From Schmidtea nova (Eukaryota), in NCBI GenBank assembly GCA_044892505.1, contig CM097883.1:498084-560000 (forward strand): a stretch of 61,917 nt of DNA. Direction: 5' to 3'. The notes below the pieces were generated by a model. The model was not told the DNA's origin. It saw nothing but the letters and a program-made list of their open reading frames with translations, and did no database searches. A program made the position numbers and the translations under genes. The stretch's first letter is position 1. Each line of letters starts with the position of its first letter. This document shows positions 11,591 through 59,006 of this stretch, piece after piece.

Positions 11591-11906
11591 ATGGAATTAA
11601 GAAATGATGCAGTTTATCAAATTGTTGGTCCTAGTGGTAGTGGGAAAACTTTATTTGTTTGTAAATTATTACAATCTAAAATGTTCAAGTCGAAATTCAA
11701 CAAAATTTATTGGCATCGAGGAGCTGATGATGAACATGGAATGACTCAAGATCAATTTTGTAAGATAAAAATGACGATAATAAAGGGTTTCGATAAAAAC
11801 TGGTCATCTAGATTACGACAAGGTGATGTAATTATTATTGATGATCTTTATCAAGAAGCAAATAAGAAAAAAGGTTTTAATAATTTATTCACGAAAATAG
11901 CAAGAC
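11591..11906 (+). pseudogene. Packaging ATPase N-terminal half, truncated by the duplication junction
   Basis: Walker A GPSGSGKT and Walker B IIIDD; identical to the 13871 copy up to the junction. Confidence 0.85.
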
Positions 11907-13301
11907 AATTGATTGGAATGCGTCATGAAAACGAGTGTTTCGATTGTTAATAAATATCGTTTCTTTGCAGAATAAATTTTTATTGATTTTCGATATAACT
12001 TTATTTACTGCAATAACATCTTCTTTATTCAGATGACCGATTAGGTTTGTATACAATGATTTTGATAGCTTGACCGGATAAGTGAATCTGAATGGTATTT
12101 CGTCTACCAAGAAATATATTTTAAAGTCATGATACATTTGAACTGGCTTAACGTCATTCTTGAATTTATTGGCTTCGACATCCGAATCTTTTTTCATTTG
12201 AGATGGCTTTATTGATTTAATTGTTTCTTCATTCTTAATAGGGCTGGTTTCTTTAAATACATTCGAAAATGTTCCGAAAACTGATTTAGTTGATTGCATT
12301 TTTAAAGAAATTATGAAATTGTATTGTTTCGTCTTTGTATTTATAAGGTTAAAAATGTTGATGTAACCAATCAAATTCGTCTATTTGTATGGTATGTTGG
12401 TGTGCATCATGATTCATTACCTATATATGATTGCATTTTTAAAGAAATTATGAAATTGTATTGTTTCGTCTTTGTATTTATAAGGTTAAAAATGTTGATG
12501 TAACCAATCAAATTCGTATATTTGTATGGTATGTTGGTGTGCATCATAATTCATTACCTATATATATATATATATATATGTGTTGCAAATAACCTCTGTG
12601 ACCTTTATGTGTGCATGTATGACTCATTTATGTATTTGTCATGCATTCACATTGCATTAGTATTGCATTTGTAATGCATTTGTACAAATTATTTTTGTAA
12701 TAAAAACTGGTGTCAAACAAAATTATTTATGATAAAAACCGTTTAAACTATTTACTTTAATATTCACTTATAAACACACACACAAAAGAAAAAGATAATA
12801 AAAACAAAGACTAATACAAATTAAATATTTATTAAATATCAACAATAGACGAATAATGGAATTTTTTCAATTCTTTTCTTAAAAGCCATGTATGATATTC
12901 CTTCACACGCTCGAAGCAACATTCGCATCGATATGCACAAAAGCTGGCTTTATTCACAATCGGGAGATCCTCGTCTACCATCCTGAGATGATCGATCAAT
13001 ATAGTACGGAGATCGATACCGGTAATTGCTAGGATCTTGAATGGTAACATTTCTGGAGCGCAGTAAATGAGATCCGTCATCAATCTAGGGTACAACTCTT
13101 CCATCTTTCCGATGAGAATGGACATTAGTTTATCTAGAAACAAATAAAAATAGAATATAAAATAAACTGTGCTTACTATTATTTGAAAACGAAGACATTT
13201 TGATAAATAACTGAAAAATCTGTTGGTATTTATACTAATTTATTTAAACACGCTCATACAAACAATCAACCAATCAGAATCGTGCATTTGTATTGCATAT
13301 G

Positions 13302-13775
13302 TTATGCATTCATGGATAATAAAAAATCCAAAAATTCTTTATCTTCAATTATCGATTTTATTTCGCCAATAATTTGATCAACGGTATCTTGATAATCTAT
13401 ATTTTTTAATCCAAGTAAAACGATTTTACCACTAGAAAATATGTTGATGCACATGGGGTTATACTTAATAAATCTCAAAGCCGGAAATATTTCAGGTTCA
13501 TAAACACATTCTATTATCTTCGATAATTCATCTAAATTGATATGAGTTCCGATATCTGCAGTGACTGTGATCGATTGAATTTGCAAATCATGTATGTTGT
13601 ATTGTAAATCTTCTACTTTTATAGGTTTCTTACATCCCATAATTCGACACTTACCGGTCTTGAAAAATATTATCGGATATTTTCCGCTTCTATCAACAAC
13701 TTGTTGAGGCTTTCCTCGTGGAAATTGTAAATGAGATACTGAACATTTTCCTTTGTAATTTATGTTGCTTAACAT
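13302..13775 (-). CDS. TATA-binding-protein-like protein (copy 2)
   Basis: Identical translation to 11022-11495. Confidence 0.85.
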   Translation of the reverse strand: MLSNINYKGKCSVSHLQFPRGKPQQVVDRSGKYPIIFFKTGKCRIMGCKKPIKVEDLQYNIHDLQIQSITVTADIGTHINLDELSKIIECVYEPEIFPALRFIKYNPMCINIFSSGKIVLLGLKNIDYQDTVDQIIGEIKSIIEDKEFLDFLLSMNA

Positions 13776-13870
13776 TATTTTAAAGAATAATTTTCAAATA
13801 ATTTCTGAAACATGATAACAATTAATTAAAACAAATATAAACAATAATACAATTTTAATAATATTGTAAA

Positions 13871-14494
13871 ATGGAATTAAGAAATGATGCAGTTTATCAA
13901 ATTGTTGGTCCTAGTGGTAGTGGGAAAACTTTATTTGTTTGTAAATTATTACAATCTAAAATGTTCAAGTCGAAATTCAACAAAATTTATTGGCATCGAG
14001 GAGCTGATGATGAACATGGAATGACTCAAGATCAATTTTGTAAGATAAAAATGACGATAATAAAGGGTTTCGATAAAAACTGGTCATCTAGATTACGACA
14101 AGGTGATGTAATTATTATTGATGATCTTTATCAAGAAGCAAATAAGAAAAAAGGTTTTAATAATTTATTCACGAAAATAGCAAGACATAAAGGTGTCACA
14201 GTTATTTTTATAACCCAAAATCTGTTTCATCAAGGTGGAGCTCATCGAACACGTAATCTAAATGTTCAATATTTAGTTGTTTTCAAAAATCCTAGAGATG
14301 CCACAGTTATTGATTTCCTTGCAAGACAAGCATACCCTAACAATCGTAATTTCTCAATTAATGCATTTCAAGATGCGACTTAAACCCCACATGGGTATAT
14401 TTTTCTTGATTTTACTCAGCAATGTCCAGATGATTTAAGAGTAAGAACTGATATTTTCAATAATGAAGGTGCAATGGTTTATAAACAAAGTTAA
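13871..14494 (+). pseudogene. Polinton A32/FtsK-like packaging ATPase with one internal stop (14381-14383)
   Basis: Walker A/B, RHKGVTVIFITQNLF, FKNPRD; the frame continues past the stop as PHGYIFLDF..LRVRTDIF. Confidence 0.9.
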
Positions 14495-14514
14495 TATTAT
14501 GTTTAGAAACAATC

Positions 14515-15054
14515 ATGCTTCTTAAATCACGTGCCAAACAACCAAAATTATCAAAACTTAGAAAGGTTTTTAAAAAGAATCGTGAAACAATAATCCCATC
14601 TAAAACTAGTTTCACACCTTCGAAAAAATTAATAACTGAAAATATCCCATCAATGAATCTTATTTCAAACAATTTAAAACCAACACCCAAGAAGAAAGTT
14701 GGAAAAGTAATAAAATCTTCAAATCATCGTAGTTTTCCATTTTTTAATGCATTGTTAAAAGCTCCAAGTGCAAAAAGAATGAATATTTTACAATCATTTC
14801 CCAATTATGTTATTGACGATTTACTTGATGTCATACTTAAAGTAGTCAAAGGTAAAATTAATATAACAAAATCAAATAAAATTGTTTTGAACAAACACAA
14901 GAAACCTCTGTTATCACTAGTAAATAGTAAAAATCGAAATCAAATGCGTAAAGTAGTATATAAACAACAAGGAGGGTTCATTGACGCCCTATTACCGTTA
15001 GCATTATCGTTATTAGGGGGAGTCGGTTTATTAGGAAAACAATCAACAACATAA
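14515..15054 (+). CDS. Basic Polinton core protein with adenovirus pX-like C-terminus
   Basis: K-rich; ends QQGG|FIDALLPLALSLLGG, an adenain-type site followed by a hydrophobic helix. Confidence 0.75.
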   Translation: MLLKSRAKQPKLSKLRKVFKKNRETIIPSKTSFTPSKKLITENIPSMNLISNNLKPTPKKKVGKVIKSSNHRSFPFFNALLKAPSAKRMNILQSFPNYVIDDLLDVILKVVKGKINITKSNKIVLNKHKKPLLSLVNSKNRNQMRKVVYKQQGGFIDALLPLALSLLGGVGLLGKQSTT

Positions 15055-15121
15055 ACAATGGGACAAACTCCTTTAAGTCAATTATCTAATCTTACATTAA
15101 ATTTTAAATCTTCTTGTTGTA

Positions 15122-16179
15122 ATGGAGAAGATTTGGACGAACCCGAAAGACCCAGCAGGTTTTGGTGGGGTCGAAAAGCTAAACAAAAACGTTCCAAACT
15201 CGAAAAAAGAGACTCAAAAATGGTTATCAGGTCAACTAGCATACAGTCTAAACAAACCAATGTTGAAAAGATTTCCAACAAAAGCATATAAAACATATGG
15301 TATTAATGATTTGTGGCAAATGGATTTGATGGAAATGATTCCATATTCAAAAATAAACAAGGGATATAAATATATTTTGACATGTATCGATGTCTTCAGT
15401 AGATTTGCACGTGCTGTTCCAATCAAAACAAAGTCAGCTAATGAAATGGCAATAGCAATCAAAACATTATTTGCAGATGGTCATCCCAAGAATTTACAAA
15501 CTGATTTGGGTAAGAATATAAAATATTATATACATTTTTATTTATAAATTTAGGTAAAGAATTTTACAATAGTAAAGTTAAAGAAATTTTGGCCGGGATT
15601 AATCATTACTCCGTATTCTCTCAGTTCAAAGCAGCTCATGTTGAACGATTTAATCGAACATTACGAGATCGGCTCAAAAAGTATTTTGTATACCAGGGTA
15701 ATAAAACATTGGTCAATGTATTGCCGAAAATAATTCATAGTTATAATCATTCTCCGCATCTAGGTATAAATGGATTGAGACCTGTTGATGTTTCATCAGA
15801 AAATACTGGAAAGATTTCACGTCAAGTAAAAACATTAAAGAAACCGAAATATAAAATTAATGATAATGTTCGAATTAGTAAAATAAGTGCTTCACCATTC
15901 ATAAAGAATTTCGATAGTAATTGGAGTGATGAAGTATTTCAAATATCGAAAATTAATACTAGTCAATATCCTGTAATGTATGTTATTTCTGACTCTGACA
16001 ATAATGAAGTCAGTGGGAAATTTTATGAGCAAGAACTACAAGTTATTCCGCCACCAACTATATTTAGAATTCAGAAAATACTAAAAACTAAAATGGTGGG
16101 TAAGGATAAACAATACTATGTAAAGTGGCATGGATATCAAAACCCATCATGGATATCATCAAAAGATTTAGTAAAGTGA
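15122..16179 (+). CDS. Polinton retroviral-like integrase with C-terminal chromodomain; 2 exons (intron 15510-15553)
   Basis: WQMD, QTDLG|KEFYN (restored by splicing) and VERFNRTL form the DDE triad; chromo motif YYVKWHGY..SWI. Confidence 0.92.
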
Positions 16180-17195
16180 ATTTTTATACTATATTACCAA
16201 GTAATAGCTGTCCACTAATACATCCTGATAATCAAGCCAGTAAATTCATGGTCAATCTTCAAAGTCCGATTTATTTAGATGGTAATTGGGAAGTTGCATT
16301 ACAAGATTTCACATTTGTATACAACACATTTCCATTTTATAGTCAATGCAAGATTGATTACAAAAGAATTGAAAATAGAGCATGTAGTGGTCTGTTCATC
16401 ATCAACAATTTTGAAAGAATCTATACTATTCCTAACCAAACTTTGAATGCTCATTGTAGTATGTATTTCAACAATGATTGTTTAAATATTAATTGTGATT
16501 TTACTCCATACACAATTACATTTGAAAATATTGAAGAAGCACGACGAATGGGAAGTAATCAACTTAAAATTGTAAGTACACTGAAAGATTATCAATTAAA
16601 GTTCATATTATTTGAACCGAATAGTTATTTGAAAGAAGATATTAAGATTACAATATCTTATGATGCAGAAATTGAAGAAACATTTACATTTGCAAATGAT
16701 TTGTATATAGTGCAACTGGAAGATTTATCTAAATATTTGTCATTCAATTGCTCACATATCTTTAAAACTCTGGAGATTAATAAATGGTTCAAATTCAGTC
16801 TCAACGATAATATTAGTGAAGTTACATTCGATAAAAACTTGGTCAATACTTTAGGATTGAATAAACAAACGTATAGAGATCGAAACCTTATAGATGGGAC
16901 TATGAAACCTAAAATACTTGTTCATCATCAACAAATGTTCATTTACAGTAACATTATTGAACCAATAATTGTCGGTGATTCTCTGGTTCTTCTACTGAAA
17001 TCTGTATGGATCGAAAAATATGAACAGGATGAAGTTGTACAAATAGTAATGGATAATCCAATGTATTTACCTATTTCTACCTCATGTATAAACAATATAG
17101 AAATAAATATCCGTGACGATAGTGGTAAATTAATAAATTTTCCAAAAGATTCAAAAACACATTTAACGTTACATTTCCGTAAAATAAATGATTAA
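16176..17195 (+). CDS. Polinton minor capsid (penton) protein
   Basis: FY.ILPSNS..N..S.F.V.L..PI.LDGNWEVAL at the N-terminus; FIYSNII...VGD and INIRDDSG..I.F..LHFR at the C-terminus; likely start overlaps the integrase stop (GTGA). Confidence 0.85.
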   Translation: MNFYTILPSNSCPLIHPDNQASKFMVNLQSPIYLDGNWEVALQDFTFVYNTFPFYSQCKIDYKRIENRACSGLFIINNFERIYTIPNQTLNAHCSMYFNNDCLNINCDFTPYTITFENIEEARRMGSNQLKIVSTLKDYQLKFILFEPNSYLKEDIKITISYDAEIEETFTFANDLYIVQLEDLSKYLSFNCSHIFKTLEINKWFKFSLNDNISEVTFDKNLVNTLGLNKQTYRDRNLIDGTMKPKILVHHQQMFIYSNIIEPIIVGDSLVLLLKSVWIEKYEQDEVVQIVMDNPMYLPISTSCINNIEINIRDDSGKLINFPKDSKTHLTLHFRKIND

Positions 17196-19984: not shown

Positions 19985-21515
19985 ACAAACACAGACACAC
20001 AGACAAACACAAAATATCACCCAAACAATATAGATGTGGTGCAATTACACAACAATGAGGGTTTCACACATTGGACACATAAATAAGTCACATACAGAAA
20101 AATGGTAAACAATCATAAAAAAGGTTTTTATTGATATAAATCAACAATACCACTAATAATAATACAGTTATCAATAATAATAAAAAAAATAAAAAATTAT
20201 ATCTATTCAAAGCATTACTCATTAAAAAATTAGGCATTGTAGTACTAATTACATAATGTAAAGGTAATATAATATAATTAGAGGAGATATAATGATAAAT
20301 ATTTTTAAAGATTAAGGTTTGTTTTAGGAGATAAATGGTTGTTTGAAGGGAGGTTAACATTAGTTGGAGCATTATTAGTAATGTGATCCATATATATTTT
20401 AAAACTAGCCGTAACTGCTGCTTTCATGCATATTTTGGCAAGTGACTTTATAGCTATTTCACCTAATCCTATTTTCCTGAGGTATTTGTCATTTTCACTG
20501 TCCCAAGATCCTATTGTTCCTACAACTATTGCTGAAAGGGTTGTAATGCATTTATTATTTTTGGCGGTGTCTAGGGAGAGTTTTAGGTATTTATCATAGT
20601 TATCTTTTCGCGCGTTATCAAAATTTATTTGTGTGTCATAGGGGAATTTAATGTCTACAATATGAATATTTTTATCATTTAAATTTTTAATAATTAAGTC
20701 AGGTTTTAGGGTGGTTTCTACTCCCGGAGGCGCACATTCTATGTCTACGTGGTATCCCCTATTTATAAAAAAACTTTTAACTTTTTCAAGCACATGTGTA
20801 TGCTTGTTCCTTCTAGCGTTTTGGGTAATTGGACAGTGATTAAAAATATGGGCTTGGGTTTCCCAGTCCTTGTTACAAAGTCTACAGTTAATATTAAGGG
20901 AGTTCTTTTTTCTATTTTGTGAGTAGTTTAGATTTAGACTATTATTACGCGCTTTTATAAGGAAAAAAAATTGTTGGTCAGTTAGTTCGTCATATTTAAG
21001 GAGGTGTGAGGAACAGCCACTATCACTTATAGTTTTATATGTGTCCCTGGCAGGTCATTTTATTCCAGCAGTCAGGGTACCATTTACTTGTCAAAATATG
21101 AATGGCCTCAGAGCCTTGGTCTAGATTATCAAATTTTATATAATGATTATATTCGTCTTTTTGTATGTTAAGTTGGAAGGTGTTGTCAATTTCCACAATT
21201 TTAATTTTTAAAAATAATTTTTCAAAGATTCTCTTAACCGAATCTCGAAATTTAGAAAATATAGAAAAAGTACCACTGTTATCCCCCTTCAAATCACCAT
21301 TTATCCACTTTATTGCAGCTACCATGTCGATTTGTTTATTTCTAAATCGATTTTGGGTAGCTTCAATAAAATAAAGTTTTTCATTAAAATGTCATTTGAA
21401 TTAAGGAACCTAATAAAATGAATAATGCTCTGAATAAGGTATTCGTCTATACTAGGTGTGACTCCCATACCCCCAAGGTTTATGTTAGCGTAGAAAAAGT
21501 GATTATTTATGTTTT
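19985..21515 (-). mobile_element. 5'-truncated RLE non-LTR retrotransposon, NeSL/Utopia-like family B
   Basis: GGMGVTPSIDEY thumb, CRLC..HIFNHC, LKPDLII..VDIK.PYD..KY; paralogous to family A. Left boundary approximate. Confidence 0.85.
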
Positions 21516-21545
21516 GAAATTTCTTTTTTTTTTCTTTCTTTTTTT

Positions 21546-21629
21546 GATTTCTGCCCAGTGCTATGAATGTCAATGTGAAGCAATTCAACTAAGCTCTGGT
21601 TAACGGCGGGAGTAACTATGACTCTCTTA
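21546..21629 (+). rRNA. 28S rRNA fragment ending at the R2 target (…AACTATGACTCTCTTA)
   Basis: Matches the conserved LSU sequence up to the R2 site. Confidence 0.92.
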
Positions 21630-21737
21630 TACCAAGCATGATGCACAAGGCAGTGTTGGGAGAGTCAAAGATGGGAGAGTTACGAGAATTAGACAAGTGT
21701 ACGCGTAGGTACGTACGAGAGTGGCTGAAACTTCCTG
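21630..21737 (+). mobile_element. Short 5'-truncated R2 insertion remnant at the canonical site
   Basis: Translates IPSMMHKAVLGESKMGELRELDKCTRRYVREWLKLP, homologous to IPGVLHEAILGE..LDKITRMLVRKWLHLP of the R2 at 26.7 kb. Confidence 0.8.
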
Positions 21738-22051
21738 ATTGTTTTTCTACTTACTCAATGATTCAGTATAATTAACTATGTTAATTTGTTTTAGTGAAAA
21801 AATAGCGATCTGCGGATGCTATTTAACTGTTTTGAGGACAGTGTCAGGCAGGGAGTTTGACTGGGCGGTACATCTGTCAAAAGGAAACGCAGATGTCCCA
21901 AGGGGAGCTCAACCAGGACAGAAACCTGGTGTTGACCAAAAGGGGAAAAGCTCCCTTGATATTGATTTTCAGTACGAATACATACCGTGAAAGCGCGGCC
22001 TATCGATCCTTTTGAATTGTACAGAGTATGTAGCAAGAGGTGTTAGAAAGT
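21738..22051 (+). rRNA. 28S rRNA fragment (domain V region); resumes at 22966-22981
   Basis: GGGAGTTTGACTGGG, GATTTTCAGTACGAATAC, GAGGTGTTAGAAAGT, then TACCACAGGGATAACT after the insert. Left boundary approximate. Confidence 0.9.
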
Positions 22052-22965
22052 CAATACATTTATTAAATACAACAAACAAAAATACACTTAAAGTATTTGA
22101 TCTCAGAATCAGGCTTACTAACCACCTGAAGCATGGCGATTTGCGGGTTTCAGCCCAATGGCTCATTCCTTATCGGTTTATGTGGTCTTTTATTGTATTT
22201 GGATTGTTTATGTTCTTGGTTTCGTACTCTCGGGTAACAATCACTACTCCTCTTCGTATCCAGATTGATCTGAATAATGTTGGTAGGAATTTGATTGTTC
22301 ATTTTGCTGAATTTAGTAGTCTTTTCCTGGTTCGGCAGAGTATGAGTATTCTGAATCTAATCTTATTTGATCCAAGTCGATACTCTTTATGCTTTCTTCT
22401 TGATTTTTTGGATGTTTTGCTACAGCAATCTTTGTATGGTTCTTTATATGTTTTTCACAGCTGTAAGGATCAACATAATCCCGACAGTGAAAACATTGAA
22501 CCGTAGCTATTTTCCTTGAGGGATAGTTATGTTTTTGGCGGCAATGGTTCATAGCATTGCGATAAGATGATGAGGCCTTATCGCACCCCATGTTGCATAC
22601 CACTCCTCTTGTTTTATGTAGGATTAGGTCCGATTTCGGCGGTTTATTTAAAGTCAATACATTTATTAATTACAACAAACAAAAATACACTTAAAGTATT
22701 TGATCTCAGAATTAGGCTTACTAACCACCTGAAGCATGGCGATTTGCGTTATTCAGCCCAATGGCTCATTCCTTATCGGTTTATGTGGTCTTTTATTGTA
22801 TTTGGATTGTTTATGTTCTTGGTTTCGTAGTCTCGGGTAACAATCAATACTCCTCTTCGTATCTAGATTGATCTGAATAATATTGGTAGGAATTTGATTG
22901 TTCATTTTGCTGAATTTAGTAGTCTTTTCCTGGTTCGGCAGAGTATGAGTATTCTGAATCTAATC
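22052..22965 (-). mobile_element. Two head-to-tail 5'-truncated copies of an element inserted antisense in 28S; zinc-finger-like ORF 22313-22650
   Basis: Units 22052-22649 and 22655-22965 share the left end (AATAAA on minus); ORF has C..C/H..H motifs; 28S is continuous across the insert. Confidence 0.75.
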
Positions 22966-23059
22966 TACCACAGGGATAACTTTTTCCGATTGGAATTTTT
23001 CTTCATTTATTTTAGTGATTTCCTTTCTGATTGAATTATCTTTCTTTATCAGAATGTTT

Positions 23060-23641
23060 AGCGATATCATTGGAGATCATGTTTTCGACATTTTTCGGTT
23101 CAATATAATGTATGAGCTGATTTTTGTTGCCTGTGGAGAATCTGATATATGATTCTTTGGCTGACTGTGATAGTGAACTGGAATTTGTTGGAAAATATTC
23201 CTCTGATGGGATATTTGATGATGTTTTAACTTCTCGAATTGATTGTTTATTGCTTTTATGGTTTGCGATATGTTCCATTACATCTTTTTCGGAGATTGGA
23301 ACTAGGCAGGTTTTAAAGGTACCCATTTCGAGTACTTCTTTATTACAATTCTTGTGGTAGCATCTCATTTCGAGAACATTATTGATAATTATATCATAAT
23401 GTTCATTGGAATTTTGGGTATTCCCTCCTCCAATTCGCTTTGGTGGATTGTTTTCAATTTTTTGAATTTTCGCATTTTGATTTGAGGTTGTAGATCTCGA
23501 ACTAGATCGATTAGTTCTTTTTTTATTCAGCTTTATAGGTGTTGTTGATTCTTCTGAAATGTCTATTTCATCCTCAGCATCAAAATCAACATTGAGATTA
23601 TGAACTGTATTTTCCTCATCATTTGTATTTTTCTTGATCAA
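23060..23641 (-). pseudogene. N-terminal region of the NeSL-like Ulp1-bearing ORF
   Basis: Near-identical to 49270-49770; has a C..C...H...H motif. Confidence 0.6.
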
Positions 23642-23744
23642 TGGTAGGTGTAATTATTTCCATTTGATTCGTATGATTAGTCTGATTTTGGAATTTTGGA
23701 ATCTCTCGATTGTAATCGAGAGATAGCAATCGATTCTTCAATTC

Positions 23745-36541: not shown

Positions 36542-39489
36542 TACCTCGTCAACTATATTACTTAATTTTCTAACTTTTGTAGGTAGTGGATTATCGATAA
36601 AGATTTTTCTTTAATTATTAATAATACTGTTATCACTATTAATATCACTATTATTTATTGTTAAATTAAAAATCGATTTTTTCGAAGATCTAAATTTCCT
36701 TAAATGATCCTTATGGTCATCATAAAAGTTCAAAAAAGTAGAATTTTGGGTGGTCTTACATACGGGACATATAAAAAACGTGACTCCTTTATACGAATAT
36801 CGGTAATATTTTACCATTAATTCAATACATTTATTGTCATGAATTGATGATCGGCAAAAATTCGGAAAAAGTTTACCTTAAATATAAAAAAAAATAATTA
36901 AAAATATGAACAATAAATGACAAGTATTTTAATATTAAAATTAATATCATTATACAATAATTAATATAAATTAATTAATAATTACAATAATAAAAATTTA
37001 ATTAAATAATTTAAAAATTATGAAAAATAATATTAATTAATTTCAATTTTTATTATGTAAAAAAAAAATTATTATTATGTAAAATTTAAATTATTTACAA
37101 GTAATTTAAAAATATTAATTTAATATAATAATTTTCATATAGAATATATTATTTACTATGATAGAAAATAAATTATTTATTAATAATTAATTTACAAAAA
37201 CTTTAATTACTAGAATATTATTAAAAAATAAAGCAATAAGTAATATTATTCAATATAAAAATTAATTTTATATTCAAGTTAATTAATTATTATAAAAAAT
37301 TAGAATAATTATAATTAAAACTAGAATTGTTTTAATAATTAGTTATAAAATTCAAATTCAAAAATTGTAAATAATTTTCAAAAATTAGTAAACACTACAA
37401 AATTAATTAAATAATTAATAATTTAAATAATTTTTTTTAAATTTGTTTAAATGTTCATATTATTATTAATATATTGTATTAAGCGCGTGCAAGACAAAGG
37501 ATCGGCTAATGAAGTTATCTATGAAAAAGAACTAGAGCAATTAATTGGAATTTTATTCTTGTCTCTGGAGTTTTATTTGCTTTTTAATCTCTTGAAGTAT
37601 TTTTGTTCAAACCATCTGAAGATTGGTTTGATTGCTAAGCCAGAATTATATAGCTGTGTTCATCGCAGCCGTTGGACTTGTTGACAGCTTTCTGCCGTAA
37701 TCATATGTGGCTATGATTGGATGGTTTCATATTGAGTTCTAGGAAGTTTGCTCTGGTTTTATTAAAAATTTATATTCTGTATCCTGGAGGTCTTTTGGCA
37801 TCTTAAATTCAGTATATTTGTTCGTAGGTAGTCTAATTATATATCTTTGCACACAGCTCCTTTTCTGATCATCAGTGGAGGTTTTTTAAGATATCTTTAT
37901 TGTCAGATGGGAAGAGAATAACTGGATTGGATTGAGTTTCACACTTGATTGAGCATCCGACTTTGCTTCCGTTTGTCTATGAAATCATTTATATATTGAA
38001 TGACATATACACCGCAGTAATAAACGGCTTTCACGCGACGTAAAAAAAAAAAATTAAGTTTTATTTAATAACACAAATCGGAGAGAATTAAGGCTAAAAG
38101 AGGAGCATGCTCACTCTTGGAATGTTTTTGGTTTTTAACACTTTTGATATTATTAGCTACCGGACATATGCTCGCGGTAGATGTGATAGCTTGCGACAAC
38201 TGCACTGATGGCGCATTTTCTTGCAAGGGCCTTTATTTCGGTTTTTGTAAGGCCCAACAAAAATTATTTTTTTCATTTTTTCAAATTCGTTTTTTAAATT
38301 AAAATTATCTGATTGATTTCCATTGATATTATCGGATGTCTCATTAAAATTTTTTAAATTATTATTGATATTTTCGGTAATTATATTTTTATTAAAAATA
38401 TTTTTATTTAAAATATTTTCTCCATTTTTATTATTTTCTCCATTTTTATGCTTAGCCACTATTTCAACTGTTCTTTCTTTATCAATAGTGGTATTATTCT
38501 GTTCATGATTTTTGCTAGAGTCTTCATGCTTTATTGTATCTTCAATATTCTCTGTTTTTTCAGTAATATTTTTGGTAATTTTTAAATTGCCAAATTTTTT
38601 AATAAAATTAAAATTTTTGAATTTAAAATTATCTTCAAAAATTATATTTCTTTTTATCTCATTATTTTCTTCATTTAGTATGAGATTAAATTCTTCAGAA
38701 ATTTTAAACTGATGAATTGAGTCCATTGTTGCTTCATTGTCAGCATTTTCTTCAATATTCCTTGATATTATTAGGTTCCCATTTTTTAAAATAAAAATTT
38801 ATTTTTAAAATTTTTATTATTTTTTGGTTTTTTTATAATAAAATTGATATTATTATGAATTTTTTGAAATTTTTTCATAATTTCAAATAAATTTTTATTT
38901 AAAAATTTAAAATAAAATTTATTTTCATGGTTTTTATATTTTTTAAATTTTTCCGCATTCTGATTTCTAAAATTTTTCCGTTTTCGTTGAATATAATTTA
39001 TATTATGATTTTGATTTTTCTTTGATTTATAATTATTCCTATAATTAGGATTATAATTATTTCCTTTGTAATTTGAATTTCCTGGTTGACCACCATTCCT
39101 CGATATTTCTTTTTTATTTGGGCTTGTTTGTTTTTCTGAATAAGTATTTTCCGATTGGAATTTTTCTTCATTTATTTTAGTGATTTCCTTTCTGATTGAA
39201 TTATCTTTCTTTATCAGAATGTTTTTGGTGATGAATTTGTATGATTTATTAATAATCTTGAGAATTAAGTCACTTCCTTTTTTATTTAATTCTTCATCGC
39301 TGATTGCCGCATCTTTTAGTACTTTCGATATGTAGTTTGAGGTGTTTAGATCATATCTCTTGATGTGCTTGGCAATCTCCTTCCAAAACATAGTCATTTC
39401 GTAGATGTTGATTCTGACTACTCCGTATTTCAGGTAATCATTGATGGCAATGATTTCTAGATTGTGCTCCTCTATCCACTGATCAATTA

Positions 39490-45735: not shown

Positions 45736-48429
45736 ATAAATTGCATAAATTACATAACTTTTAATAATAATGAAAAAAAAGTTATTTCCAATAAATTATA
45801 TTTTTATTTAAATTTCTTCAATTCTTCTTATCTGCTTTCTTCAATTTGATTAAATTTTTTGATTTCTTTAATTCTTCTAATTTGAATTTATAATACGTTA
45901 TCATGGTCATTAATGTTTTACATTTTTCTTCTAATTCAAAAATGTATTGCTCAACTTCGTCATCAATTACTCGACCTTTGTTATAGTATCCTTAGTTGAG
46001 AGCTAGAAAAAGAAATAATTAATTTTAATAATTAAATCAAATACTTACGAATATAATCAGTATTATATTTATTAGTCAAAAATAATAATGAAACAAAAGT
46101 TATTTCCAATAAATTATATTTTTATTTAAATTTCTTCAATTCTTCTAATCCATTTTTTTAAAATTAAATAATGAAAAAAAAAGTTATTTCCAATTAATTT
46201 AATTTTATTAAAGTTTCTTCATTTCTAATCTGTTTTCTTGAAATCAATTAAATTAATTGATTTCTTTAATTCTTTTAATTTCTCATGATAATTGTTTCTC
46301 TGGGTTGTTAATAATTTACATTTCTTTTCCAACTCTAGAATCTATATTTCGACTTCAGCATCAATAACCCTACCCTCATTATAATATCCCCATTTAAGCG
46401 CTTGAAAAAAAAATTAATTAATTAATAAATAAGGGCGTGGCGGTGTTAAGTTAAGGGGGAGATCTTGATTCTAGTTGATACTTATAAACTAGTCAATTCT
46501 CGTACCAACATGTTTCCGGTTGAGTAGTGGACTACTACAATAAATTATATTACTGGCAATCGTATTACCGGCCGCGTTGACGCATGTAAAGCAACTCAGC
46601 AAGCCGAGTGGTGTAGTTTATCTTTTTATAACTGGTGGTCCTACTCCTACACTGTCCTTACAACTTAACACCAATCAGCTCCAAATATCTTGCTTTTGCT
46701 TTAATTTAAACGATGAGACTGACACTAAGTTGCGCTTCCACTGGTCATGATAAGTAGTCATGACTCATGTAGTCCTCTTTAGCTATCTGAATAGCGTAGT
46801 TTGTCTTTTTATAGCCGGTGGTTCTACTCCCACGCTGCCAGACAAGCATCGTACTCATCCTCATACAAACACTAATACTCTATTAAACTCGAGGCTTTGT
46901 CTTGCCTGGTTCTTCAAGAGATTTATATACATGTTTGTGTCCAGTTTACCAGTTTCATTATATATATAAAAATAAAATAATAAGAAAAAGTAAAAGGATA
47001 CGCTTTTTCTTGCAGAGAAGTTCGAATAGGCATAAAGAATAATCAAAAGTAGTTTAACTTACCACATGATCTTCCTTTGTTATAGTATCCTTAGTTGAGA
47101 GCTAGAAAAAGAATTAATTAATTTTAATAATAAAATCAAATACTTACAAATATTATCATTATAATAATTATTAGTCAAATAAAATAATGAAACAAAAGTT
47201 ATTTCCAATAAATTATAATTTTATTTAAATTTCTTCAATTCTTCTAATCTGCTTTCTTGAATTTGATTAAATTTATTGATTTCTTCAATTCTTCTAATTT
47301 GATTTCATAATACGTTATTTTGGTCATTAATTATTATCTAGGTCATCTTAGTCATTCATACGTTATCTTGGGCATGAACAAAGAGGCTAAATTAATAAAA
47401 ATTGAATAGACAATAAAGAATGGAAAATTTCATAAAGACAAAATAATGACATAATATTGAAAAATTAATTAAAAAGGGTAAAATAAAGCAAGCTGAGAAT
47501 TTAAATGAAAATGTCTAATAATAGTAATATATTTTTTAAAAATTTTGAGAGTGGTTAAAACTTTAAAAAGTAATTTTTAGTAAATTATTTAAAATAAATT
47601 ATTTAAATTAAAATTATTATAAATGTTTGTACTGAGATATAAAACTGCTAAATTTATGAAACATATGGTTAAACTAAAATAAAACAAGGAGAACTTTTCA
47701 AGGTACAAAATATTAACAAAATATTTTAACAAATGGTAAAATAAATAAACTGAGTGCTGTGACTTTAAATGACTTAAAATTTAAAATTAATATTTTCAAT
47801 GACACAATGTATATAAAAATATGCGTATTATTTAGAAAATATAGAAACATTTAATAATTTTCAAAAATTTTAAATTAAACATTTTTTAAGTAAAATTTAA
47901 CAATAAAATTTCAAATCTTTTAACAATAATAAAAAGGTTTTAAAAAGATAAAGAAAAAGTCAAAATCAAATACAAAATTTATTCAATAAATGTTTATTTC
48001 ACTATATATGTTTTAGTGACATAAAAGAAACTCCTAAATATTATCCTATTAGCAGAGACACAAAAAGTATTTTAAATTAATTTTTAAACAATAAAATTTA
48101 CAGTTTATCGTTTTATTTAATTTTAAAATTTAAACGACTCTGGATTCATTAATCTTAATAGTAACATTTACATGAATTTTAGGGCAAAAATATTTTATAC
48201 ACATTGTATGAAGCCTGGCGGCATTTAGTGTACGTAATAAAAATAATAATTTTTAAATTGTCTTGCAAAACTCAAAAAGAAAGAATATTGAATTTAAAAA
48301 AAACAAGTTTATTGTAAAATTAATATTTTTATAAAGTTTATTAACAAGCTTTTAAAATTTTAAATAATATATAATGAAAAATATTTTTAAATGGTAAATA
48401 TAACATTTTATTTTTTTTAATTTGTTTAA

Positions 48430-49770
48430 ATGTTCATATTATTATTAATATATTGTATTAAGCGCGTGCAAGACAAAGGATCGGCTAATGAAGTTATCTA
48501 TGAAAAAGTACTAGAGCAATTAATTGGAATTTTATTCTTGTCTCTGGAGTTTTATTTGCTTTTTAATCTCTTGAAGTATTTTTGTTCAAACCATCTGAAG
48601 ATTGGTTTGATTGTTAAGCCAGAATTATATAGCTGTGTTCATCGCAGCCGTAGGACTTGTTGACAGCTTTCTGCCGTAATCATATGTGGCTATGATTGGA
48701 TTGTTTCATATTGAGTTCTAAAAAATTTGCTCTGGTTTTATTAAAAATTTATATTCTGGATCCTGGAGGTCTTTTGGCATCTTAAATTCAGTATATTTGT
48801 TCGTAGGTAGTCTAATTATATATCTTTGGCACATAGCTGCTTCTCTGATCATCAGTGGAGGTTTTTAAAGATATCTTTATTGTCTGGTGGGAAGAGAATA
48901 ACTGGACTGGATTGAGTTTCACACTTGATTGAGCATCCGACTTTGCTTCCGTTTGTCTATGAAATCATTTATATATTGAATGACATATTCACCGCAGTGG
49001 AAGTCATTTTCTTGTTTCGGATTGAATTCTAGATAGAATGTATCGAATTTTATTTGAGATTCGATAGTAAAGCTCAGCATGTTATCCATTTTAGATTTTA
49101 GAGAAGTGCTTTTGTTCTTGGCTCATTTGATCATTCGGATCCATGATTATTGACTTTTTTGCTTTTCTGGAGGCTAGATATACAGTCCAATTTCCTATAT
49201 TCCAATGGATTAGCCATATTATGAGTTCCGATCCTACTAAGGTTTCTAGTTTAAGATTTTCTAGAGTTTTAGTGATATCATTAGAAATCATGTTTTCGGC
49301 ATTTTTCGGTTCAATATAATGTATGAGCTGATTTTTGTTGCCTGTGGAGAATCTGATATATGATTCTATGGCTGACTGTGATAGTGAACTGGAATTTGTT
49401 GGAAAATATTCCTCTGATGGGATATTTGATGATGTTTTAACTTCTCGAATCGATTGTTTATTGCTTTTATGGTTTGCGATATGTTCCATTACATCTTTTT
49501 CGGAGATTGGAACTGAGCAGGTTTTAAAGGTACCCATTTCGAGTACTTCTTTATTACAATTCTTGTGGTAGCATCTCATTTCGAGATCATTATTGATAAT
49601 TATATCATAATGTTCATTGGAATTTTGCGTATTCCCTCCTCCAATTCGCTTTGGTGGATTTTTTTAAATTTTTTGAATTTTCGCATTTAGATTTGAGGTT
49701 GTAGATCTCAAACTAGATTTATTTGTTCTTTTTTTATTCAGCTTTATAGGTGTTGTTGATTCTTCTGAAA
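48430..49770 (-). pseudogene. NeSL-like ORF with Ulp1/C48 cysteine protease domain
   Basis: LIHWNIGNWTVY..KKSIIMDP and, after a frameshift, PKQENDFHCGEYVIQYI. NeSL-1 is known to encode a Ulp1-like protease. Confidence 0.7.
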
Positions 49771-51220
49771 TCTCTGTAAATATTTCTAAAATTGATAATA
49801 AAATACATAAAAATATACAAGTATGCTGCCCATTTTTTAAAAATAAATAATGAAAAACAAAAGAAGTTATTTCCAAATTTATTAAAGTTTATTCTTTCTT
49901 CTTAAAATCAATTAAATAAATTGATTTCTTGATTTCTTTTAATTTATGTTTGTAATAATTTCGTTGGGTTTTTATTGATTTGCATTTCTTTTCAAGTTCT
50001 AAAATAAGTTTATAGTTCGGCATTTTTAACCCGGCCTTCATTAAAATATCCCCATTTGAGCGCTAGAAAAAAATTAAGAAATAAAGAAATAAATAAATTA
50101 ATAATAAAATCAAACGCTTACGTATATAAGTTATTTCCAATTTTATTTTATTAAAGTTTCGTTATTCTTTTTTCTTGAAATCAATTAAATTAATTGATTT
50201 CTTCAATTCTTTTAATTTCTCTTTATAATATTTTTTCTGGGTTGGTAATGCTTTACATTTCTTTTCCAATTCTAAAATATATATTTCGACTTCAGCATCA
50301 ATAATCCTACCCTCATTATAATATAATAGAAAAAAATAGAAAAAAAATTAATTAATAAATAAGGGCGTGGCGGTGTTGGGTTAAGGGGGAGATCTTGATT
50401 CTAGTTGATACTTATAAACTAGTCTATTCTCGTACCAACATGTTTCCGGTTGAGTAGTGGACTACTACAATAAATTATATTACTGGCAATCGTATTACCG
50501 GCCGCGTTGACGCATGTAAAGCAACTCAGCAAGCCGAGTGGTGTAGTTTATCTTTTTATAACTGGTGGTCCTACTCACACTGTCCTTACAACTTAACATC
50601 TACCAGCTCCGAATATCTTGCTTTCGCTTTTATTTAAACGGTGAGACTGACACTAAGCTGCGCTGCCATTGGTTATGATAAGTAGTCATAACTCATGTAG
50701 TCCTATTCAGCAATCTGAATAGCGTAGTTTGTCTTTTTATAGCTGGTGGTTCTACTCCCACGCTGCCGTACAAGCATCGTACTCATCCTCATACAAACAC
50801 TAATACTCTATTAAACTCGAGGCTTTGATAATGTCTTGCCTGGTTCTTCAAGAGATTTATATACATGTTTTCGTTCAGTTTTCCAGTTTCATTATGTATA
50901 TATATATATCAAATAAAAATAAATAAAGTTAAAGGATACGCTTGTTCTTGCAGAGAAGTTCGAATAGGCCTAAAGAATACTCAAAGTAGATGAACTTACC
51001 ACAGGATCTTCTCGAATGCACAACTTGAACCTAATAGCGCGATTGATACTAAGGGAGTTCCACCCGTTCTTGCACCCTCAGCCGATCGTGCACCCACCCT
51101 TTGAGCGAAAGAACGACCCTCTACGGACTGTCGGGATAATTCTTCGCAGTTTCTTACTGTTGTCCCTGCAATGGGTCTCGGAAGCGGCCCCAAATCCACG
51201 AGTGAAACCTACAAAGCAAT

Positions 51221-54200
51221 CTTTCCTTCTAAATATTTAGTAAGTAATTAATTTAATTAGATCTGCCCCCTATTTTATAATCAAGAAACATACAGACAAA
51301 CAATCAGACAACCAGAGACTAAATAAAAACAAATAAACAATAAAATAAGAAACAAAATGTGAAGTTAGTATATAAAGTATATGGTTATTTTAATAATAAA
51401 GATAATATTATAAAACAATACTGTTATTATATAAACATACAAACTATTAGTGCCAATTCCTCCAAGCGCAATACATTCTCGCCGTCCAATTTAGTACTTT
51501 TAGAGGTATGAGCATGGCATCTGACTGCGTGACACCGAATTTCTGTACGGTGTCCCATGAATCCACGGCTCAGATACCACGCCAGTTCAACGTTAAGGCA
51601 CCGAACTCTACCGTATCTGCCTCCTGCTCTAGGACCTACGTGTCTCAACCTCATCATATACCATGGACTTTGTAGTATTCCGTTCTCTCAGATCTGACTT
51701 GTCACTAACAATTTGTACATCCACGACCATAGCACGGCGGTCTTTGATAATTACTAAATCCGGTTTGAGTATAGTCTCTTTATACGGTTTAACCGGTTCC
51801 ACAAGGGTCTTCCAACCCTTCTTCCTCGCGATGTCAGCTGTAAAAAGCATCACTTTATTGTTCCACTCGCATCCCATGCGTAGCAGTGCACTTTTGTGAT
51901 ATGTGGCTAAGACTGCAGGGAAACCCACAGCCCGCCTTACATTAAGATGATGATGTGGTGGAATCGCCATTCATACGACTGAGTCGCGTCGGGGTACTAA
52001 AGATGTTTCCACGAATTTTGACGCTGTTAACGAAGGATCTACCTGTACAAAACTTTGTCCTGGCTTTCATCCAGTTATGAACCTCTTCGCTTCCACACAG
52101 ACCCTTCCCATCCAGCTTTGTATACAGCAAGTCTCGCATAGACTCGTAATAGGTTTGTTTATCGCACGCCAGGGAGTCACAGGCTTACTCCATTTGGCTA
52201 ACAAGTTTCTGACGACATCCTGCTCCACTAATCCCCGAATCCTTCCATCACTGCTATCGGCAAGCCTCTTCAATCTAGTTATCTTCGCAAATTTCCCCTC
52301 AGCCAAGAGAGTAGGTACCCCCATTCCTCCATCTTTAACTTTGGAGTGAATGTATGAAAAGCACGTATCTTTTGGTAGATGTAGCCATTTACGAACTAGC
52401 ATCTGAGTTATCTTGTCCAGTTCACAAAGCTCCAAGTCATCAGTTTCGCCTAAAATTGCTTCGTGCAAAACGCCCGGTATAAGGAAGTTAGTTAAGACTT
52501 CCAGTTTTTGTTGTGGTTTAATCGGGGAGATAGTAATATTGTTAATGCGTTCTGTATATATTTTAGTTAAGTTATTTTTCATTTTACCCAGCGGACCAAA
52601 ATAAATGCCTAAATATTTATAAAAATCATTTGATAATAAAATGGGAAATTCCTCTTCACCATCGGCCACTCGCTCCGAAGTTATTATCCAACTGTCACTC
52701 TTCCCGTCTCTTTTGGCTACAATGGACGCACACTTTGCAGCATTCACTGAAAGACCATTTTCACCAAGTTCTCGAAGAACAGAATAAAGAATGTCTTGGA
52801 GTCCTTCTTTGGTCTCAGCTAGAAGGATAATATCATCAGCGTAGGCCATAATGGGATAGTTATATCCATTCATCTTATATCCGAGTTGGGTTTTGTAGGC
52901 TTTCTCAATCGCCAACTCAATAATATAATTAAAAAGTTCGGGTGAGAGCGGATCCCCTTGCTTCACACCTCTTTTGAACGTAGCTGGCGTTCCATCTACA
53001 ATAGTCTCGGCGTCAGTATAGCTATTTTCTATATAATCTAATAGTAGTTTGGGGTAATGGGCTATTTTTGCCGCTCTTAAAATACTTTCATGATTGACAG
53101 AATCAAAAGCTTTCTTCATATCAATGAAAGCCAGGGCAATATTCTTTTTATTTTTACGTGCATCAGAGAGAATAGAGTCTAGTAAAATAGTATTCTCTAG
53201 ACATCCATCGATGGGCTTAAACCCTTTTTGGGCCTAAAAACTTTTATCATAGTTTAGGGTTCGCTGTGCGAGAATTTTATTTAAAACTCTAGTTATAACT
53301 GAATTTATTGAAATAGGCCGATAATCACTTGGACTTTTTGGATTATCGGTCTTTGGTATTAGCGTTGTTCTGGAGCTTTTTAGAACCGGAGGAAGATAAC
53401 CTAGATAAATTACCAAATTAAATAACTTTACCAATACAGACGCCGGGATCGTCCTTAGTGTTGCAGTAGTAATGCCATCAGGACCACAGGCAGTCTTCAG
53501 GTCTATTTCCTTAACTGAATTCAGAACCTCTGAATCGGTTATAGGTAAGACCATATTACTCTCCTCAGTTACTGTCTCTACACCTCTTGTATCAGCCTCC
53601 GATTCCCTTTCGAAGACACCCCGCCAATACTCACCCAGACCCGTAACTGATTCGATACCACTCACCAAAGAATCGACCTTCCCCCCGAGTATCACTTTGG
53701 CTGCCTCACTTCTGTCTTTTTTGAATAGTATTTGGAGAGCTCCATATGTTTTTCTTCGGAACTCTTTCTTCAGATGCTTCTTCGCATCCTTGGACGGCTT
53801 GACTAGTGGGCTAACCTTACTACGGGGCGGCCTTCCTTTGGGACGATGGCTAAAGGTTATATCATTACAATATATCTCTAGACATCTTCTTTTTTCATCA
53901 GACGCAGAAGGACCGTGGATAATATAGTCCAGGTCGCGCTCTTGCCAATCATCAATACCTTTATTTTATTTATCTTAGCGGCATCGTGTTTATCACAATG
54001 TTTGTTACTGGTGTGTACCCCCTTCCCAATTTTAGTCGGAAAAATCGCTTCACAAAAATCACAGTCGGCGGCTTCCTCTCTCTTCGTTATTGATTTTTTA
54101 TTAAGTTTCATTTTTCATGGATTTGTTTTTAAGGGAGTGTTTTACAGTAGGACACCATTCCTTGGTAATGTCTCACCGTCCTAAAATTAACCTACATAGA

Positions 54201-55224
54201 TACCTTACCTAGTTCTTTAGTGGTGGTGGTCGTATACGATCTTATTCTTAAACATTATTATTATTTTCCTAGCATGAAAGCCCACAAACAACCAGTAGTT
54301 TGTTACTAGTGTGTACCCCCTTCCCAATTTTAGTCGGAAAAATCGCTTCACAAAAATCACAAGCGAAAGTGTCGGCGGCTTCCTCTCTCTTCGTTATTGA
54401 TTTTTTATTAAGTTTCATTTTTCATGGATTTGTTTTTAAGGGAGTGTTTTACAGTAGGACACCATTCCTTGGTAATGTCTCACCGTCCTAAAATTAACCT
54501 ACATAGATACCTTACCTAGTTCTTTAGTGGTGGTGGTCGTATACGATCTTATTCTTAAACATTATTATTATTTTCCTAGCATGAAAGCCCACAAACAACC
54601 AGTAGTTTGTTACTGGTGTGTACCCCCTTCCCAATTTTAGTCGGAAAAATCGCTTCACAAAAATCACAAGCGAAAGTGTCGGCGGCTTCCTCTCCCTTTG
54701 TTATTGATTTTTTATTAGGTTTCATTTTTCATAGATTTGTTTTTAAGGGAGTGTTTTACAGTAGGACACCATTCCTTGGTAATGTCTCAGCGTCCTAAAA
54801 TTAACCTACATAGATACCTTACCTAGTTCTTTAGTGGTGGTGGTCGTAAGTAGGGGAAAGTGAGCGCACGGAGCCACTTTTTTCAACTAGCAACGGTAGG
54901 TGAAACATACTGCTGATTACTGAACAGGGCCCGGATGTATGCAGATCTTGTCGTCGACACTTGCTTGTCGGAACTGTATACGGTGATGTCAATTCTCACT
55001 ACCAAAGGAATTGTTTTAAGTGGCCTAGCTGCTTAATAAACTCGTCTTGCAAAGGTCTGGTAATTTTTCTAAGTGTTTGTCAGTTGGTGGGCGAAACATA
55101 CCACTGATTGCCAATTGATCTTAGGTCTGCGGTAGAAGACTTGGAGTGCTTCGGTGCTTTGACAATTCGGTGCCGCATTATTCTCATTAAGGGCTATCGA
55201 GTACCATGTGTTCGTCACGGGTCA
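51221..55224 (-). mobile_element. R2-type element, duplicate copy
   Basis: Near-identical ORFs; three 307-bp 5' units. Confidence 0.9.
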
Positions 55225-55934
55225 ATATATATTCATATAGTCAGATGTTGCTAAAGTTAACACATACACATCAATATATAGTCCTGGGGAAGATATAGTT
55301 AAGGTAAACACACAGATCAATATATAGTCCCGGGGTAAATACACACATTAAAGTATAGTCTCCCTGTAACTATTGCTAAGGTAACCACACATGTTAATAT
55401 TTAAGTCCTGAAGTAACTATTGCTAAGATAAACACACCATTGTGTAAACCCCATGACTACTGTTGGTAACGTCAAAATACACAACATATTAATTATTATC
55501 CGTACCACAAACGAAAACATGTTCTTTACTTAATTAAATGAAATTTTTGTTTGAATGTACTGGCTAACATTTTGAGTAATTGTTTTTTAACTGATAACTT
55601 TAGAAAATCGAATGTGGCAACTATGAAAACAGATGAAATTAATTCGAGAATTGTGACAATAGTCAAAATTTTAAAGACGATTCAACAGAGTGCAACTGCA
55701 AGAACAGATGAAATTTATTAATATTTGTAAACAAAAACAATTATTTTTACAATAAATAAAAACGAATTACACAAATCCTTAAAATATTACACTAATCAGG
55801 TGAAAACCCTGAACGATAAAACCGATTCAAATCTGGACAACACATAAAATTTTTAAAAACAATTAAACATAACAGTCTAAAGAAATATAAAACTAAATAT
55901 AATGAAACCAATTATTTTTTAACAAGGTTTTATT

Positions 55935-58900: not shown

Positions 58901-59006
58901 CAAATTTAACGTTAGGAAGAAGGGACCCACCATATTGAACATCTATGGTGTTAATGTCATTATTAAAACTTGTGTCAGAGTCGGAAACAATTTTCATATC
59001 GGACAT
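55935..59006 (-). pseudogene. Polinton pPolB (copy 2)
   Basis: Same lesions as copy 1. Confidence 0.93.

Follow-up and report, generated by a model that had tools for sequence, protein, structure and literature searches.

A multicopy element with a zinc-finger reading frame inserted antisense at the LIN9_SM site of a planarian 28S rRNA gene fragment

Introduction

R5, attributed to work by Burke in 2003, reportedly has a two-ORF layout, and LIN9_SM probably carries a pair of fingers ahead of its Ulp1-like domain. Mosquito RT elements insert further downstream in the 28S rRNA gene than the site considered here, in the sense orientation and with a target duplication. The closest counterparts by target belong to R5/LIN, a clade with 96% support that lies within the NeSL clade, and its planarian elements LIN9_SM, LIN24_SM and LIN26_SM all target 28S (Kojima and Jurka, 2015; PMC4640811, section 10). 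The zinc fingers of NeSL-clade elements are described there as N-terminal (PMC4640811, section 9). In Schmidtea mediterranea, LIN9_SM is inserted antisense in 28S at the sense-strand position GTCAGAAAA^GTTACCAC, as illustrated by nine 3′ rows and twelve 5′ rows, some with repeated accessions (Kojima and Jurka, 2015; PMC4640811, S6 Fig). The printed 3′ ends carry a T-rich tail in seven of the nine rows and show no target duplication, and one of them has just three T, as does the insert described below (PMC4640811, S6 Fig). R9 is placed at "another site" in 28S (PMC5035012).

Non-autonomous LINEs that retain an ORF1 are exemplified by HeT-A (Jockey), HAL1 (L1), and Ag-Sponge (CR1), and bipartite elements without any ORF have been derived from RTE, Ingi, Vingi, and R2 (examples given in PMC5786205). 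Here we describe an insert in a 28S fragment of Schmidtea nova that uses the LIN9_SM site and carries a zinc-finger reading frame next to its 3′ end.

Results

The 28S fragment carrying the insert

The window, that is, the whole stretch of DNA analysed, is 61,917 nt long with about 30% GC. Rfam recognizes 28S at 21546-21656 and 21730-22048, the part ending at 22048 corresponding to positions 2425-2811 of model RF02543 (E = 1.4e-64). The region is made up of the following features:

21546..21628, plus strand: 28S fragment that starts at the LIN24/LIN26 site and ends with the left half of the R2 site (Rfam)
21629..21733, plus strand: R2-like fragment, 5′-truncated, at the canonical R2 site and cut off by a deletion (ORF likeness, contigs, variants)
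21735..22049, plus strand: 28S fragment up to the target A run (Rfam model positions 2425-2811)
22047..22649, minus strand: copy 1 of the insert, 603 bp, a 5′-truncated 3′ portion of the element (contigs extend further)
22047..22051, minus strand: last bases of copy 1 at its 3′ end, terminal AC followed by a TTT tail (copy 2 ends in the same 5 nt)
22052..22312, minus strand: 3′ region, about 260 nt long, in which AATAAA stands 9 nt ahead of the tail and no remnant of ORF2 was detected (profile, frames)
22313..22649, minus strand: C-terminal end of an ORF, probably ORF1, with two C2H2-like zinc fingers; stop codon at 22315-22313
22650..22965, minus strand: copy 2, 316 bp, head to tail with copy 1 and 5′-truncated at the far target junction
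22966..22981, plus strand: downstream 28S, 16 nt, starting 2 nt short of the LIN9_SM 5′ boundary; its first T is common to the element
22982..23059, minus strand: piece of another repeat family, identical to 4870-4947, a later join that ends the 28S

The host 28S survives as a decayed piece about 0.45 kb long. Compared by eye with the S. mediterranea 28S row printed in S6 Fig of PMC4640811, 83 of 86 columns are identical for 21546-21629, as are 59 of the last 63 nt of the fragment 21735-22049; this similarity points to a dugesiid planarian as the most likely host. Beyond the insert, 16 nt of 28S are followed by an unrelated repeat. This short piece is the sole match on either window strand with up to three mismatches allowed, and the number of exact matches expected by chance is about 1e-5; chance was rejected as an explanation.

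The R2-like fragment upstream shares 58% identity over 36 aa with the R2-like ORF at 26359-27522. Contigs assembled from sequencing runs continue beyond both of its ends, and six of its seven listed variants fall at third codon positions. It belongs to a different family from the R2-like element at about 25700-28600, which has a duplicate near 51000-54800. In runs X1-X4, introduced below, 28S occurs as several types, with loose ends at 22029 and, over 21735-22013, low-depth variants with 13-23 differences. Such heterogeneity fits the presence of more than one rDNA type, or of numerous pseudogenes.

Layout and junctions of the insert

A preliminary description, made from the DNA sequence, had reported two tandem copies sharing one end, and both its coordinates and this layout hold: the copies start at 22047 and 22650, 603 bp apart, and are truncated differently at their far ends, to 603 and 316 bp. 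They differ at nine positions in 316 nt. The other features reported for the common end were also found, with AATAAA on the minus strand at 22064-22059 and, in place of poly(A), a T tail that reads TTT on both copies. The antisense orientation relative to the rRNA, likewise proposed, is confirmed by the minus-strand coding frame and by the polarity of truncation.

The motif AAAGT that precedes each copy is best read as the element's own end, namely terminal AC plus a TTT tail seen on the complementary strand, and the 3′ end of copy 2 (22650-22654) has the same 5 nt as that of copy 1. Bases 22047-22049 are readable as element tail or as target. Reading AAAGT as the element end would account both for its presence before copy 2 and for the A missing from the rejoined 28S. 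The earlier statement that removing the insert cleanly restores 28S holds in part: 28S does resume at 22966, but three A are left where the S. mediterranea row has four (by eye). Since the rejoined 28S is one A short, it is better to put the cut within or after the run of A and to assign GT to the element. At the far junction, 22965|22966, there is a 1-nt microhomology (T at 22966), two nucleotides of target are lost relative to the LIN9_SM boundary, and no target is duplicated.

The target site

The site, which lies in the peptidyl-transferase region of 28S, had been put forward as a target far downstream of the R2/R4/R5 hotspot, with the caveat that it might coincide with a described one such as that of mosquito RT elements. 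It was published in 2015 for the planarian R5/LIN element LIN9_SM (PMC4640811), so the claim of a new rDNA target falls, though the record is confined to a supplementary figure. By eye, both window junctions match the boundary GTCAGAAAA^GTTACCAC printed in S6 Fig, apart from the 2 nt missing on the 5′ side. The insert also shares the T tail, the antisense orientation, and the lack of target duplication with LIN9_SM. A literature text search for the 15-nt site motif returned unrelated papers only. Site-specific, target-primed insertion with 5′ truncation, as first suggested, is supported by the match to the LIN9_SM site and orientation and by contigs that leave 28S at 22049/22050. If the family is indeed site-specific, most of its 3′ ends should lie on 28S sequence reading ...GTCAGAAA(A).

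Copies of the family in sequencing runs

Runs X1-X4 represent three samples from one study, of unrecorded type, with X3 and X4 derived from one sample. They carry 60-64% of the sequence words of 21700-23000, and X5-X20 carry just 5-7%; no RNA runs carrying the region's words are listed. The contig results below draw on listed rows: 40 of 112 for variants, 24 of 295 for loose ends, and 32 of 769 for contig pieces.

The insert is a member of a multicopy family with several subfamilies. Copy 1 is covered at a depth of 120-300 in most bins of X1, X3, and X4 and mostly of 1200-3200 in X2, compared with 10,000-190,000 for most 28S bins. The listed pieces are 0, about 8, and about 13% different from the window. 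Three contigs of a diverged subfamily (records 23, 28, and 16) match up to 22644 and then run on for 265, 301, and 553 letters, which indicates that copy 1 is 5′-truncated on the minus strand.

Among the 24 of 295 loose ends listed, five X2 contigs leave 28S at 22050, with a consensus (agreement 0.62) that by eye is AT-rich like the insert end, and four X3 contigs leave it at 22049. One X2 contig joins 22047 to 22730. None of these listed loose ends shows a non-28S flank at the element 3′ end, which is weak evidence given their number.

Of the pieces listed, those that bridge the tandem junction 22649|22650 come from X3 and X4 alone, hence from one sample. Record 20 of X3 (522 nt, depth 120) covers 22556-22751, steps back by 603, and continues through 22474, passing the point where copy 2 of the window stops. 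Record 30 of X4 (depth 65) bridges the same junction. Position 22713 is C in all contig depth from X2, X3, and X4 and T in the window. The junction is thus present in copies unlike the window's, and so is shared and amplified. The preliminary description had envisaged two separate insertions, a view weakened by the contigs that share this junction, do not have the T of the window at 22713, and extend beyond the end of copy 2. The simplest account is one template jump that was later amplified, and it fits better than two fresh insertions. No piece among the 32 of 769 listed bridges the far junction, 22965|22966. Little or no contig depth is found at 22850-22957, since contigs were probably placed on copy 1.

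The zinc-finger reading frame and the 3′ region

The finger frame is kept under selection. All nine of its variants (within the 40 of 112 variant rows listed) fall at third codon positions and eight of the nine are synonymous (P ~5e-5), compared with none of nine in either of the other two minus frames and six of nine in the mirror plus frame. The ESM Atlas relates the finger ORF to C2H2-type clusters at 0.94-0.95. Pfam had no match to the finger ORF below E = 0.09, nor any to the second minus frame, and a homologue search restricted to longer proteins gave 43 candidates, none at E ≤ 0.01. A second large search yielded a single match, which was rejected as a galectin-like repeat artefact (best stretch 7 bits). 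A single-sequence AlphaFold model of the ORF shows a strand-helix arrangement twice with a pLDDT of 54, and Foldseek found no match to it at E ≤ 0.001, so the model is not taken as evidence.

Traces of Ulp1, RT, and endonuclease were sought in the 603-bp insert with an ORF2 profile built from 10 Ulp1-RT-RLE sequences. None was detected (best score 2.6 bits), and neither was a CCHC knuckle with a restriction-like endonuclease before the 3′ UTR (2.6 bits). The same profile scored 218 bits on a control stretch of the window and 41 bits on a second control but missed a third, a short degenerate Ulp1-like piece (2.4 bits), so a short decayed ORF2 remnant in the insert could be missed likewise. In X1, three finger variants with depths of 56.6, 55.2, and 37.5 (149 in sum) pass into two of 105.7 and 69.8 (175) and then into one 3′ contig of 166. 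This continuity, seen among the 32 of 769 pieces listed, makes a finger ORF followed by the 3′ end look like the standard layout of the family.

The 3′ end of the insert has no match among the other elements of the window or in 80 metagenome loci. Folding of the 3′ 269 nt as RNA was not clearly better than that of shuffled sequences (z = -1.54; 13 of 200 as good), and Rfam at E ≤ 1 found no hammerhead and no other match over the insert. Pfam likewise gave no sign of a GIY-YIG domain or a PLE RT in this 3′ part.

Finger-bearing relatives

The only close relative among the 80 metagenome loci is the contig locus L001 (1-4339), in which a pair of fingers ends ORF1 30 aa before its stop and is followed by an ORF2 with Ulp1, RT, and RLE domains. 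L001 is a two-ORF R5/LIN-like element, its ORF2 of 1152 codons following an in-frame stop. The second finger of its ORF1 has the same spacing as that of the insert: the pattern C-x2-C-x11-HI-x2-H, picked after both sequences were seen, occurs only in these two among about 930,000 translated residues and in none of 57 proteins. Alignment of the finger ORF with L001 ORF1 was not significant (404 of 1000 shuffles as good), nor was alignment with the window ORFs at 49094 and 23039 (417 and 385 of 1000). Some single-ORF Utopia-like proteins outscore those in the finger-ORF comparison, at 62 versus 32.

BLAST of the 80 metagenome loci showed no match to 28S, the insert, or the finger ORF, and Rfam found none in the four loci searched. 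An 11-nt core match in locus L037 was set aside as likely chance. The finger-plus-Ulp1 ORF of the window retrieved nothing as a query (601 candidates). In that type of ORF, at 49094-49663 and 23039-23653 (minus strand), a finger remnant continues in frame into an Ulp1-like domain, and in L001 a stop intervenes. The lineage may include elements of both layouts, with one ORF and with two. A C2H2-pattern pair located after the endonuclease was found in none of the nearest ORFs, P0001-P0011.

Other elements in the window

R5/LIN-like elements adjoin the LIN24/LIN26 site at 5207|5208 and at 21545|21546. The one at 20308-21545 (minus strand), a 5′-truncated RT-RLE element, reaches the site through an A-rich run, and another, at 6252-8507 (minus strand), terminates with an extended A run at 5400-5428. 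For the RT at 7167-8507, the nearest sequences are 11 RT ORFs (41-46% identical), eight of which have a precomputed Ulp1-like domain. Positions 5208-5277 are a 70-bp scrap of 28S between two antisense pieces of one repeat family. Its left junction is the LIN24/LIN26 site as printed in S6 Fig of PMC4640811; its right junction, which follows GGGAGTA, is seen again both as loose ends (at 21614; X1, X3, and X4) and as a joint (X2). It may therefore mark a further place of frequent insertion, about 15 nt upstream of the R2 site.

Sequence resembling the right half of the insert's 28S target closely, though not exactly, occurs at 25285-25297, 50996-51008, and 47060-47072. It lies at the far end of a LIN-like 5′ region (23060-25283) and could represent either a further 5′ junction at the LIN9 site, now decayed, or part of a ribozyme-like 5′ end. 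Broken ORFs at 13862-17192, 33730-36610, and 56195-59075 appear by eye to be of Polinton/adintovirus type, resembling genes for an ATPase, an integrase, a capsid-like protein, and a DNA polymerase. The window also contains long duplications, 9628-14187 at 99.9% and 32757-39452 / 55222-61917 at 99.96%, which are recent or assembly-made.

Discussion

Origin of the insert

Taking the observed site, orientation, tandem layout, multicopy status, selected frame, and lack of a detectable ORF2 in 603 bp as the starting point, we lean towards reading the insert as the 3′ part of an ORF1-only, non-autonomous partner of a LIN9-type element. The finger ORF is probably the ORF1 of this element, and the family appears to be non-autonomous. 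Because the finger ORF directly precedes the 3′ end, the enzyme would be borrowed in trans, and because the endonuclease expected before the 3′ UTR was looked for and not found, the insert is not filed as an autonomous R5/LIN member. The statement that RT is lacking applies to the 3′ 603 bp of the element, and an RT ORF 5′ of the fingers would lie outside this span.

In such a partnership, the LIN9-type element would supply RT and endonuclease in trans. Its RT/restriction-like endonuclease would nick the rRNA-sense strand within the A run, and the freed 3′ end (...GAAA), paired with the element RNA at its U tail, would serve as primer for cDNA. After 603 nt, synthesis would stop and jump to another RNA molecule, at its U-tailed 3′ end, the head-to-tail junction thus being made once, in an ancestor. 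The junction would have been multiplied later, and the last unit of the window would have been cut short at 22965 and joined through the 1-nt microhomology with the loss of 2 nt. The jump and the join are modelled on R2 by analogy: R2 RT jumps between templates in vitro (reported in PMC4117753), and truncated R2 5′ junctions commonly have microhomologies of 1-5 nt and target deletions (reported in PMC2718515). For R1, identical tandem-like junctions have been proposed to represent one event that was amplified (PMC2718515).

A bolder version of the non-autonomous reading, which we regard as rather unlikely in its entirety, is that an element with a zinc-finger ORF1 as its sole ORF, selected in several subfamilies, borrows an R5/LIN enzyme, that its fingers help to aim it at the peptidyl-transferase region of 28S, and that it spreads as 603-bp head-to-tail units.

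The finger ORF could instead belong to an autonomous element that uses the LIN9 site and has an unusual order, with an RT ORF upstream, a separate finger ORF 3′ of it, and ordinary truncated ends. Selection on the finger frame across subfamilies 8-13% apart, relatives that reach at least 553 nt further 5′, and the absence from the window of a partner with the same 3′ end are all consistent with this. However, the fingers precede Ulp1-RT in L001 and in the window ORF at 49094, they are N-terminal in the NeSL-clade elements described in PMC4640811, and P0001-P0011 do not have a C2H2-pattern pair after the endonuclease; we therefore judge an autonomous element of this order unlikely. The partial tandem copies of the insert also recall Penelope-like elements, in which partial tandems (pseudo-LTRs) and 5′ truncation are typical and of which two plant families target 28S (described in PMC8557442). 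A Penelope-like element aimed at 28S in the manner of Selaginella PLE-X is nevertheless very improbable, since the Selaginella target, at 1121-1126, has a different sequence (PMC8557442), no hammerhead or other Rfam match at E ≤ 1 occurs in the insert, and the site, strand, and T tail match LIN9_SM. Identity with the PLE-X site was rejected because that 28S target lies elsewhere (PMC8557442). A group I or spliceosomal intron was rejected as well: the coding frame is antisense, the copies are truncated and tandem, and there is no Rfam match.

For the tandem layout itself, the preliminary description had proposed repeated target-primed insertion. On such a model, the later copy would have entered where the 3′ end of the earlier one meets the target, the terminal bases of the earlier copy having rebuilt AGAAAGT, with AAA duplicated. 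The element end does restore two more target-like bases, tandem R1 arrays arise at a regenerated target (as reported in PMC2718515), and the nine differences between the copies would fit successive insertions. Yet the LIN9_SM rows show no target duplication, the bases downstream of the cut would no longer be 28S, and the identical junction is found at depths of 65-120 in copies unlike the window's, so that amplification would be needed even under re-insertion, which we hold to be distinctly unlikely. Quite improbable is a purely DNA-level origin, in which the 603-bp unit arose from one old insertion by unequal crossover, or by collapse of an array in assembly, with no template jump. Records 20 and 22 of X3 close a 603-bp circle, and the window does contain other long, near-identical duplications, but the unit starts exactly at the T tail, a position that a random duplication would have no reason to prefer. 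Each of the two copies has changes of its own relative to the contig majority, and hence they are not one collapsed sequence.

Comparison with known elements

Among described elements, LIN9_SM, likewise from a planarian host, resembles the insert in its site within 28S, in lying antisense, in a 3′ junction that ends in T on the A run of the target, and in the lack of duplication. The LIN9_SM site is in use by several subfamilies in another planarian population or species. The two differ in that the 3′ end of the insert is, by eye, unlike the approximately 55-65 nt printed per end for LIN9_SM in S6 Fig of PMC4640811, and AATAAA is present in the insert and not in the rows shown there. A finger ORF adjoins the 3′ end of the insert, whereas an endonuclease does so in LIN9_SM, and the insert is further set apart by its head-to-tail 603-bp units and by the 2-nt target loss at its truncated 5′ junction. 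LIN24_SM and LIN26_SM are antisense like the insert and, as printed, have AATAAA shortly before a T tail; their site, used twice elsewhere in the window, is about 620 model positions upstream. R5 is, like the insert, an antisense planarian 28S element, located near the R2 site. R2 shares the fixed 28S site and 5′ truncation, but its site lies about 540 model positions upstream and it is inserted in the sense orientation. A fixed 28S site with 5′ truncation is also described for R9 and Selaginella PLE-X.

In layout, the insert compares with HeT-A, HAL1, and Ag-Sponge, which keep one ORF1-like protein and the 3′ end and are missing the RT. None of the examples given in PMC5786205 is from an RLE clade or aimed at rDNA, and a thin literature search found no report of an ORF1-only element in such a clade. 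If the ORF1-only layout is correct, the insert would add an rDNA-targeted case from an RLE clade to the few protein-coding non-autonomous LINEs, and would make it possible to ask if target choice in two-ORF R5/LIN elements is set by their fingers, a question that bears on retargeting R2-like proteins for gene insertion. Should the bolder version with target-aiming fingers also prove true, the family would be a natural case of a targeting module separate from the enzyme.
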